Assembly: GCF_056746865.1 (NCBI RefSeq)
Contig: NZ_CM163382.1
Direction: 5' to 3' (one strand)
DNA length: 64,000 bases
Of this stretch, positions 20,031 to 22,295 are shown piece after piece. A program made the position numbers and the translations under genes. The notes beneath the pieces were generated by a model, which made no database searches, had not been told where the DNA came from, and worked only from the letters and a program-made list of their open reading frames with translations. Position 1 is the stretch's first letter, and each line of letters starts with the position of its first letter.

Positions 20031-20075
20031 GTAAGAGGCAGGGCGTAGTCGGACTATTTCCCTGCCTCTCCTCCC

Positions 20076-20109
20076 CGAACCGGACGTGCACCTTTCAGCG
20101 CATCCGGCT
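20076..20109 (-). ncRNA. Group II intron domain V (catalytic hairpin)
   Basis: 34-nt GAGCCGG...GAAA...CCGGTTC hairpin matching the domain V consensus, just 3' of the reverse transcriptase stop. Confidence 0.75.
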
Positions 20110-20115
20110 CTCCAT

Positions 20116-21639
20116 TTAAATGCTGGCGAACGCCATTGCCACTTCTGTAAAGCGCGATGTATACGTGTTTCTGGTCTCCGTCCTCAGATAGGGATTACCT
20201 TCGGGTAGCCGCCAGCGGAACAGCTTCTTGCCTTGCCCCACCAACCGGTACAGTATTTCGCCGCTGAGCTTGCCGTGATTGGTTTTACCAAATAAAACCC
20301 ACGTTTTGCTCTGACCCGGTTTCGGTGATTTACACCACCACCTCATCAGGGAAGCGATACCTGTACGGTATTTGCGGGCCAGCCAGTGAGCCAGCTTCCA
20401 GAACACGACACGGTCGATATAACTGAAGACTTTGGCCTTAAAATCAACGAACTGATAGAACATGGCCCAGCCTTTCAGTTTTCGGTTGAGTTGTTCAGCC
20501 ATATCGACTTTGCTTTCACTGTAGTTGCCTGATAACAGTGCTGTCAGCGATGCGGCGAAGTTTCTGGCTTTCTCCTGCGGGATCGTTGAGACCACTCGCA
20601 TCTCGCCATAACGACTGCGTTTGCGAATGATCCTGTGCCCCAGAAAGATAAAGCCGTCATTAACATGGGTGATTTTAGTCTTATCCATGTTCAGCCTGAG
20701 TTTCAGACTGCCTTCGAGCACACCCCGACACTCCTCCCTGATGGCTTCCGCCTGTGCTTTGGTGCCTTTGACGATGAGGACAAAATCATCGGCATAGCGG
20801 CAGTACGCCACCGCGGGTTTCCACTGCCAGTTTTCTCTGACCGCCGTACTTCGGCCCCGTTGGATACTGTTATTCCAGTACCACCGATCTTTTCTGGCTT
20901 TCCCGCTCAGGTAGCGCTCATGCAGGTATTGATCGAACTCATTCAGCATGATGTTCGATAATAGCGGCGATATAACACCGCCCTGTGGCACACCTTCACT
21001 GGCCGCCCGAAAGAGACCGACATCGATATGTCCCGCCTTGATGGTTTTCCACAGCAGAGTCATGAAACGTGCGTCACTGATCCTGCGGCGTACAGCCTTC
21101 ATCAGCAGTCGATGATGTACGGTGTCGAAGTAACTGGACAGGTCGCCTTCAATCACCCAGCGTCCCCGGGTTTCACCACAGTCTGTGAGCTGTAATTTCA
21201 CCGTGCGGATCGCGTGGTGGACACTGCTCTCAGGCCGGAAGCCATATGAGAGCGTATGAAAATCACTCTCCCATATCGGCTCCATCGCCATCAGCATGGC
21301 CCGCTGAACAATACGATCCCGCAACGCGGGGATACCCAGTGGTCGCAGTTTGCCGTTGCTTTTAGGGATGTAAACCCGTCTGGCGGGCAAGGGCTGGTAG
21401 TGGCCTGAGAGTAATTCATCCCTGAGGATTTGCAGCTCAACAGCCAGTCTGGCCTGTAGCATTGTTTTGTTCACGCCATCAACGCCGGGGGTATGGGCCC
21501 CCTTTGATGAAAGCGTGATCCGCGCCGCTTCAGCCAGCCATTCTGGTTGTGTTATCAGACGCAGCAGCCGTTGAATCCGTAGGGACGGATCGGTGGCTGC
21601 CCATGTGGCAAGCTTGCGTTGCATTTCGCTGATTATCAA
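20116..21639 (-). CDS. Group II intron-encoded protein (reverse transcriptase with maturase domain); TTG start
   Basis: RT motifs including the YADD box (AVAYCRYADDFVLIV) and GKLRPLGIPALRDRIVQ; located in intron domain IV. Confidence 0.85.
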   Translation of the reverse strand: MIISEMQRKLATWAATDPSLRIQRLLRLITQPEWLAEAARITLSSKGAHTPGVDGVNKTMLQARLAVELQILRDELLSGHYQPLPARRVYIPKSNGKLRPLGIPALRDRIVQRAMLMAMEPIWESDFHTLSYGFRPESSVHHAIRTVKLQLTDCGETRGRWVIEGDLSSYFDTVHHRLLMKAVRRRISDARFMTLLWKTIKAGHIDVGLFRAASEGVPQGGVISPLLSNIMLNEFDQYLHERYLSGKARKDRWYWNNSIQRGRSTAVRENWQWKPAVAYCRYADDFVLIVKGTKAQAEAIREECRGVLEGSLKLRLNMDKTKITHVNDGFIFLGHRIIRKRSRYGEMRVVSTIPQEKARNFAASLTALLSGNYSESKVDMAEQLNRKLKGWAMFYQFVDFKAKVFSYIDRVVFWKLAHWLARKYRTGIASLMRWWCKSPKPGQSKTWVLFGKTNHGKLSGEILYRLVGQGKKLFRWRLPEGNPYLRTETRNTYTSRFTEVAMAFASI

Positions 21640-22295
21640 AGGTCTTCACCTCGTTAGGTCAGTTAATTCACGTCGCAAACACATTCAAACTGCTTCCCTT
21701 CGCCATGTAATGGGCTTTCCCCATCGCGGACTACTACGGAAGCTCCGCCAGCCAGCGCGTCATCGGAGCCATGCCCCCTTAACATCCGTCGCTGACCTTC
21801 CCCGGTTTACCGGCCTGGACTCAGGCATACTGAGGAGGCTGCCCGTCGCACTCTTTATCCTTGCTTGCCGCAAGTTGGCAGAAGTCAGCAATGCAAGCGT
21901 GATAGACGCTGCTGCCCCGGTGTTTCGCATACATGTCAAAACACCTTCGACCGGCAGTGCTTACGTATCACTGCCAGTTCCTCCTGCACGGCCTGTCAGA
22001 TCACGTAGGCCGTGGTGACGTTTTCAACCCACAGAGGCGGATTAACGGGTTCATGTTCTTCAGCCTTTCAGTACTTAACCTTGAGGATCATCTCGGCTTA
22101 GTGATCTCGCCTCAATCCCCGTTGTCAGCGGGTTACATCACCCTGCGGGCATGCCGCAGGTCACTGCCGCTCAGGTTCTCCACCGTCACACCCGGTGGGA
22201 TTGTTGGGTTTCTCATCGTGAGTTACCGGTTCAATATTCCAGACAGACTCGCGGTTCATTTAAGCATCCATGCCCGCCCTGAACTCCGGGCACAC

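Follow-up and report, generated by a model that had tools for sequence, protein, structure and literature searches.

A chimeric IS629/IS911 host of the group II intron E.c.I4 in Escherichia coli, probably formed by recombination between intron copies

The 64,000-nucleotide (nt) stretch of contig NZ_CM163382.1 (NCBI RefSeq assembly GCF_056746865.1) that is analysed here, and that is called the window as a whole, carries on its minus strand a 2270-nt group II intron of the E.c.I4 type between the left part of an IS629-like and the right part of an IS911-like insertion sequence (IS), both of the IS3 family. The mixed exons are most probably the outcome of homologous recombination between intron copies residing in different IS hosts. 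According to the mechanism proposed, E.c.I4 would retrohome into a conserved D-F/V-T-Y codon site in the transposase genes of several IS3-family elements, including IS629 and IS911, and a crossover would take place within the intron, a sequence of 2.27 kb with roughly 99.8% identity, between a copy in IS629 beside the scr (sucrose) island and a copy in IS911 beside the lldP-dld-lutABC lactate module. The exchange, which would be an ordinary (RecA-type) recombination event, would fuse the two genomic segments and leave the arrangement IS629-5'::intron::IS911-3'.

The limits of the intron were set by aligning the region to an intact element of the IS1203/IS629 family and to an intact IS911, both from other E. 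coli genomes. The components of the chimera are listed in window coordinates, with the evidence in brackets where it is specific to the feature; PGAP is the Prokaryotic Genome Annotation Pipeline and ORF stands for open reading frame.

22296..23090, minus strand: left (5') 795 nt of an IS629/IS1203-like element, the 5' exon, with the left inverted repeat from 23090, inserted into a truncated IS1414.
22710..23036, minus strand: IS629-like orfA, 108 amino acids, intact (ORF list; PGAP annotation of near-identical loci).
22639..22755, minus strand: ALIL frameshift pseudoknot of the IS3-family host (Rfam RF01497, 111.7 bits versus a gathering score of 50).
22296..22713, minus strand: N-terminal part of the IS629-like orfB, to ...QLWVADFTY plus the first base of the next codon (translations).
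20026..22295, minus strand: group II intron E.c.I4 (bacterial class A), 2270 nt, GUGUG...AC (alignment to empty IS sites).
19539..20025, minus strand: right (3') 487 nt of an IS911-like element, the 3' exon, with the C-terminal part of orfB and the right inverted repeat ending at 19539.
23091..23883, plus strand: truncated IS1414 (IS256 family) holding the IS629 left end, a left flank shared with the scr island (PGAP, near-identical loci).

The 5' exon (23090..22296) is 95.6% identical to the intact IS1203/IS629-family element, in an alignment that ends exactly at 22296, and at 99.5-100% identity it matches the 5' halves of further copies that contain the intron. The 3' exon (20025..19539) aligns at 96.7% identity to intact IS911, from exactly 20025 through the right inverted repeat, so that the alternative of an IS629 3' flank, which was tested, does not hold; it is 99.6% identical to the IS911 half beside the same lldP flank in strain E8. 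The empty sites read, with a slash at the insertion point, gattttacttacg/tcagcacatgg in IS1203 and gatgtgacctata/tctggacgggt in IS911. In codon terms the insertion points are TAC G/TC (IS629) and TAT A/TC (IS911), both after the first base of the codon following D-F/V-T-Y, and the two positions are therefore exactly homologous. The initial annotation had described an IS629-like 5' exon and an IS911-like 3' exon that meet at homologous transposase positions, and the alignments to intact IS1203 and IS911 confirm it. Neither element is complete in the window, where IS629/IS1203 is represented only by its left inverted repeat, orfA, the frameshift pseudoknot and the N-terminal part of orfB, and IS911 only by its right 487 nt with the right inverted repeat. 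The 64-kb window contains no second copy of the intron, of IS629 or of IS911, nor an IS911 5' half or an IS629 3' half. In strain 673 (retrieved locus 19018-19493) a longer IS1414 remnant retains part of the EAST1 enterotoxin gene; the IS1414 of the window is truncated by the IS629 insertion.

Two other strains carry the intron in complete hosts at either flank of the window locus. In strain STEC346 the order is scr island–IS1414'–IS629-5'::intron::IS629-3'–zorC', and its sequence is colinear with window positions 34154..20024 at 99.68% identity, diverging 2 nt past the intron. In strain E8 the order is IS911-5' (with IS30)::intron (with IS1203)::IS911-3'–lldP–dld–lutABC, and colinearity with the window extends from within the intron to window position 12084. 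STEC346 thus matches the left side and E8 the right side, and the window is therefore the left of one layout plus the right of the other, with the intron as the sole shared segment. The nesting in E8 (retrieved locus 14912-20886) is such that IS911 is broken by IS30 and by E.c.I4, and the intron gene ltrA by an intact IS1203.

Further copies help to place the exchange. The IS629-5'::intron arrangement beside the scr island recurs in strains SLK172 and MB46, where the 5' exons are 99.9-100% identical, and the IS911 3' halves of these strains differ from that of the window by 3.9% in pairwise alignment and lead into different downstream DNA with type I restriction-modification genes. Compared with 13 other copies, the window intron has three derived substitutions, 404A, 484C and 1068A. 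The window and SLK172 share these single nucleotide polymorphisms (SNPs) but not the 3' exon, which would place the exchange in the last 1.2 kb of the intron, between its nucleotide 1068 and the first base of the 3' exon. In strain M217 a complete IS911::intron has its left flank, an IS30 insertion and the SNP 398A in common with the reciprocal chimera that lies next to pic in O104:H4.

The frequency of each arrangement was estimated in 5426 complete E. coli genomes. The chimera queries lacked the central part of the intron and could reach 80% coverage only where both exons are present. With these queries the IS629-5'::intron::IS911-3' chimera was found in about 261 genomes (~5%) and the reciprocal IS911-5'::intron::IS629-3' in 116 (~2%), and the exact window locus with both flanks is present in 40. 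The IS911-5'/intron junction occurs in 1156 genomes and the intron/IS911-3' junction in 926. About 476 genomes contain a complete IS911::intron::IS911, a value that counts full IS911 hosts since a flankless full IS911::intron::IS911 reaches 80.7% coverage in that query. A complete IS629::intron::IS629 is present in several hundred genomes, for which 978 is an upper bound because chimeras with the IS1414 flank reach 80.8% coverage in the same query. The initial annotation had offered two explanations for the mixed exons; the one in which the intron homed into both IS types and its copies then recombined agrees with these results, as both full hosts are common, both are found at the window flanks and reciprocal chimeras exist.

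The other explanation was a hybrid target, namely retrohoming of the intron into an already existing IS629/IS911 chimera, itself the result of IS-IS recombination or of a hybrid insertion. Both homologous IS sites are used by E.c.I4 according to the description of its insertion sites in PMC3522654, so that a chimera joined there would still be usable. However, a contiguous intron-less IS629/IS911 junction was found in 0 of the 5426 genomes, the six hits at >=80% coverage being two pieces 560-680 nt apart. Moreover, IS629 and IS911 have ~42% positional identity over the 200 nt on each side of the site and are a poor recombination substrate, the switch from one to the other falls exactly at the intron borders (0-2 nt ambiguity) in every chimera examined, and the full-length parental layouts are found at both flanks. 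A pre-existing hybrid is thus very improbable. Even less credit can be given to an assembly artefact, in which a 2.3-kb repeat would have collapsed two loci into one: near-identical intron repeats do exceed short-read length, but the same junction pair is present in the about 261 complete-level genomes, which come from many laboratories, the exact locus is found with both unique flanks in 40, and lineage-specific SNPs follow the locus.

A subtler variant couples the exchange to retrohoming, so that after reverse splicing into the IS911 site the nascent cDNA, or another intermediate, would invade or switch to the IS629 copy of the intron. The product would be the same as that of plain recombination, and the variant predicts that the IS629 exon is accompanied by the 5' part of the intron, as the shared SNPs show. 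The intron also lacks an endonuclease domain, and introns of this kind depend on replication-fork primers and host repair. It is nevertheless improbable, as there is no positive evidence for it, the reciprocal chimeras and the several partners are more simply accounted for by ordinary recombination between long near-identical repeats, and the copies at this locus appear to be decaying (with an Arg133 to Ser substitution, R133S, in the window and a W29* stop in its relatives). A similarly low probability is assigned to the broader proposal that E.c.I4, rather than being a passive repeat, serves across the population as a point of exchange where unrelated IS families are joined again and again and their attached islands are swapped, some exchanges perhaps proceeding via retrohoming intermediates of the intron. 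To this proposal belong the occurrence of a chimeric host of either polarity in at least 377 of the 5426 genomes and the joining of the scr locus to at least two different IS911 partners.

Some observations weigh against recombination between intron copies as the origin of the mixed exons, or limit the detail in which it can be described. The crossover is mapped to an interval only: when SNP mapping was attempted with 14 copies from IS629, IS911 and chimeric hosts, these differed at no more than 7 positions, none of them specific to the IS host. STEC346 and E8 have the right architecture and were considered as immediate parents, but they are too diverged and are better regarded as cousins. The IS629 5' half of STEC346 is 3.2% diverged over its whole length, and the lactate module of E8 is 98.3% identical overall and 96.8% identical in the lutABC region. 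The direction of change is deduced from architecture (an IS629 that was once complete at its site) rather than from phylogeny, and the event may have been a deletion, an inversion or a replacement after horizontal transfer. Finally, plain recombination and retrohoming-coupled exchange are inseparable by sequence alone. With respect to the STEC346 copy, it may be added that window positions 22312-23087, compared across the identical IS1414/IS629 junction, show 28 differences in 790 nt but only 10 across the 11-kb flank, a distribution that suggests conversion of the whole IS by another IS629 copy.

By its sequence, the element is a further copy of the catalogued intron E.c.I4. It is 99.69% identical over 2270 nt to E.c.I4-2b of strain E24377A (NC_009801 4848623-4850893), the coordinates of which are given in Table S3 of Leclercq & Cordaux 2012 (PMC3522654). 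In the same paper E.c.I4 is described as inserting at specific positions in the transposase genes of IS629, IS911, ISEc16 and ISEc31, and both junctions of the window fall on this IS3-family transposase site. E.c.I4 and S.f.I1 belong to bacterial class A, among the classes without a recognisable endonuclease region (Toro & Martínez-Abarca 2013, PMC3552965), a placement with which the Pfam result on the window protein agrees, as no endonuclease domain was found. The identification of the element as a group II intron with a reverse transcriptase (RT) was right, and the class check leads to a catalogued intron. E.c.I4 and S.f.I1 have in common with the window element the length of 2270 nt, an RT + X protein without endonuclease and the same homing site; the window copy differs from the published E.c.I4 in its three derived substitutions, one of which is R133S in the FRPxR motif, and in having exons from two different IS elements.

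The 5' end of the intron, GUGUGCCCGG, lies at 22295, directly after the exon ...GATTTTACTTACG that ends at 22296. The 3' splice boundary, derived from the alignment to uninterrupted IS1203 and IS911, is at 20026, where the sequence reads ...CTTACTCTAC/TCTGGACGGG; the last nucleotides of the intron are ...CUUACUCUAC and the RNA terminus is ...CUAC. The conserved GUGYG and AY termini of group II introns are thus present at both boundaries defined by the hosts. The initial annotation had given the element an extent of 20031-22295, of which the 5' end stands and the 3' end is 5 nt short, AC being found at both 20031 and 20026. The other elements of architecture that it listed (GUGYG 5' end, RT gene with a YADD box, domains V and VI, AC 3' end) were all found, on the minus strand. 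The functional parts of the intron are as follows, EBS1 being exon-binding site 1.

20077..20110, minus strand: domain V hairpin, 34 nt, with a GAAA loop (GAGCCGGAUGCG..GAAA..CGUCCGGUUC) (Rfam RF00029; fold).
20028..20074, minus strand: domain VI helix with a bulged branch-point A at 20032 (fold; Rfam alignment).
21960..21965, minus strand: likely EBS1, CGUAAG, intron nt 331-336 (pairing predicted from a complementarity scan and a minimum-free-energy fold).
20116..21624, minus strand: RT/maturase ORF, 502 amino acids plus stop, uninterrupted, with R133S (translation; Pfam RVT_1 and GIIM).

The Rfam RF00029 model of domains V and VI matches positions 20112..20026 with 64.9 bits versus a gathering score of 40 (E = 1.7e-10), the final 100 nt of the intron fold into domains V and VI with z = −5.5 versus shuffled sequences, and the single bulged A of domain VI (20032) lies 7 nt from the 3' splice site. 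The 671 nt that precede the ORF also fold better than shuffled sequence (z = −3.4), a value obtained with only 20 shuffles and for a region in which no covariation test is possible, the copies being >=99.7% identical. CGUAAG is found in the 9-nt loop of a 10-bp hairpin and is a perfect 6-bp complement of CUUACG, the last six nucleotides of the IS629 exon, so that the loop is likely to be EBS1. For EBS2, candidate pairings around intron nt 270-282 were considered for both exon types, and none was convincing. The likely EBS1 forms 6/6 pairs with the IS629 site CUUACG and 4/6 with the IS911 site CCUAUA, one of which is G-U. Its bases are invariant among the copies compared, yet IS911 is occupied in >1000 genomes.

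The intron-encoded protein contains the YADD box and matches the Pfam domains RVT_1 (E = 7.9e-34) and GIIM (E = 1.3e-10), which were the only ones found in the Pfam search, an endonuclease domain being absent. Its nearest structural matches are LtrA and the GsI-IIC RT, both of solved structure. The derived substitution 1068A is the one that replaces Arg133 with Ser in the conserved FRPxR motif. LtrA, the GsI-IIC RT and a third group II RT, the solved structures that match best, all keep this Arg, and the protein of the window, though intact, may be weakened by the change. Strains 2452 and SLK172, the nearest relatives at the same locus, share 404A, 484C and 1068A and in addition carry the W29* stop, because of which ltrA is flagged by PGAP with an internal stop; the window is without that stop. 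Full identity of strain 2452 with the window, suggested by a value of '100%', was ruled out, as the figure is due to rounding and 2452 has W29* in ltrA. It looks as though the lineage of the intron at this locus is decaying.

Group II ribozymes recognize about a dozen bases at the end of the 5' exon; in IIB-type introns the first base of the 3' exon is recognized as well. In the window the 5' exon ends in the same 30 nt as the exons of full IS629::intron copies, and the first two bases of the 3' exon, TC, are common to IS629 and IS911. With a parental 5'-exon end, a shared TC and the 6-bp match to the likely EBS1, there is therefore no sequence argument for blocked splicing, and the view, expressed in the initial annotation, that the intron can no longer splice out is not supported at the RNA level. 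Splicing of the RNA would still be possible, all exon-recognition positions being parental. Once ligated, the exons are in frame and encode an OrfB with the N-terminal part from IS629 and the catalytic core from IS911. However, the ends of the host element, left from IS629 and right from IS911, are unrelated in sequence, and the mismatched ends along with the mismatched halves of the transposase make the chimera unlikely to be a functional, mobile IS.

As for the rest of the window, positions 12084-19117 contain a second lactate-utilisation cluster with an lldP-like permease, dld and lutABC/ykgEFG-like genes, 78-84% identical to the core E. coli dld/ykgEF, a near-identical form of which was seen nowhere but in strain E8 and the 40 genomes that share the locus. 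Between the 3' end of its lldP and the IS911 right end, at 19360-19480, there are palindromic units resembling repetitive extragenic palindromes and bacterial interspersed mosaic elements (REP/BIME-like; …gcctgatgcg…ggccggataaggcg…ccggcatccggca…). A direct repeat of 2475 bp, 99.5% identical, occupies positions 1576-4050 and 9408-11882 with a spacing of 7832 bp. In each copy there is an isrC small RNA (3583-3705 and 11415-11537; 150 bits with Rfam), together with an IS5/ISKpn26-like piece and a member of the IS3 family that is ~64% identical to IS911. On the opposite side of the intron, the alpha-galactosidase of the scr/raf island (window position 30592-32718) is annotated with an internal stop in strain 2452 and is intact in SLK172 and STEC346.

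A chimeric IS629/IS911 host of E.c.I4 is already known since 2012, and what is added here are the parental layouts at the locus and rough population frequencies. In Table S2 of Leclercq & Cordaux 2012 (PMC3522654), E.c.I4-3a of strain 55989, in SHI-1, is accompanied by the remark that 'the IS host is a chimeric IS629/IS911', and the host of E.c.I4-15 in strain IAI39 is given as a chimeric IS629/ISEc31. As in the window, the same intron lies between the halves of two IS3-family elements; the loci are SHI-1 or a prophage in those cases and the scr/lactate island in the present one. If the O104:H4 copy is that of 55989, E.c.I4-3a has the opposite polarity, IS911-5'::intron::IS629-3' next to pic. 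Leclercq & Cordaux 2012 note the chimeras only, whereas layouts and counts come from the present analysis.

The arrangement in the window resembles the products of IS-IS recombination in that repeated mobile DNA serves as the crossover site at which islands are fused or deleted, and it differs from them in that the homology comes from the intron, not from the IS, so that IS families too diverged to recombine are joined. Ectopic recombination between group II intron copies was reportedly described in Wolbachia by Leclercq, Giraud and Cordaux in 2011. To judge from what is cited of that work, dispersed near-identical copies would provide portable homology for rearrangement there as with E.c.I4, in a case that would involve a different intron class and a different host. 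The discussion of PMC3522654, in the part that cites the earlier Wolbachia work, regards intron/IS tandems as particularly likely to undergo ectopic recombination.

A mobile intron with homing sites in several IS families thus supplies 2.3 kb of shared, near-identical DNA, which lets elements that do not recombine with each other, and the islands adjoining them, be joined. In the window the junction connects a sucrose island with a second cluster for lactate utilisation. The counts suggest that such chimeras are common in E. coli, and they may be a subject for a population study.

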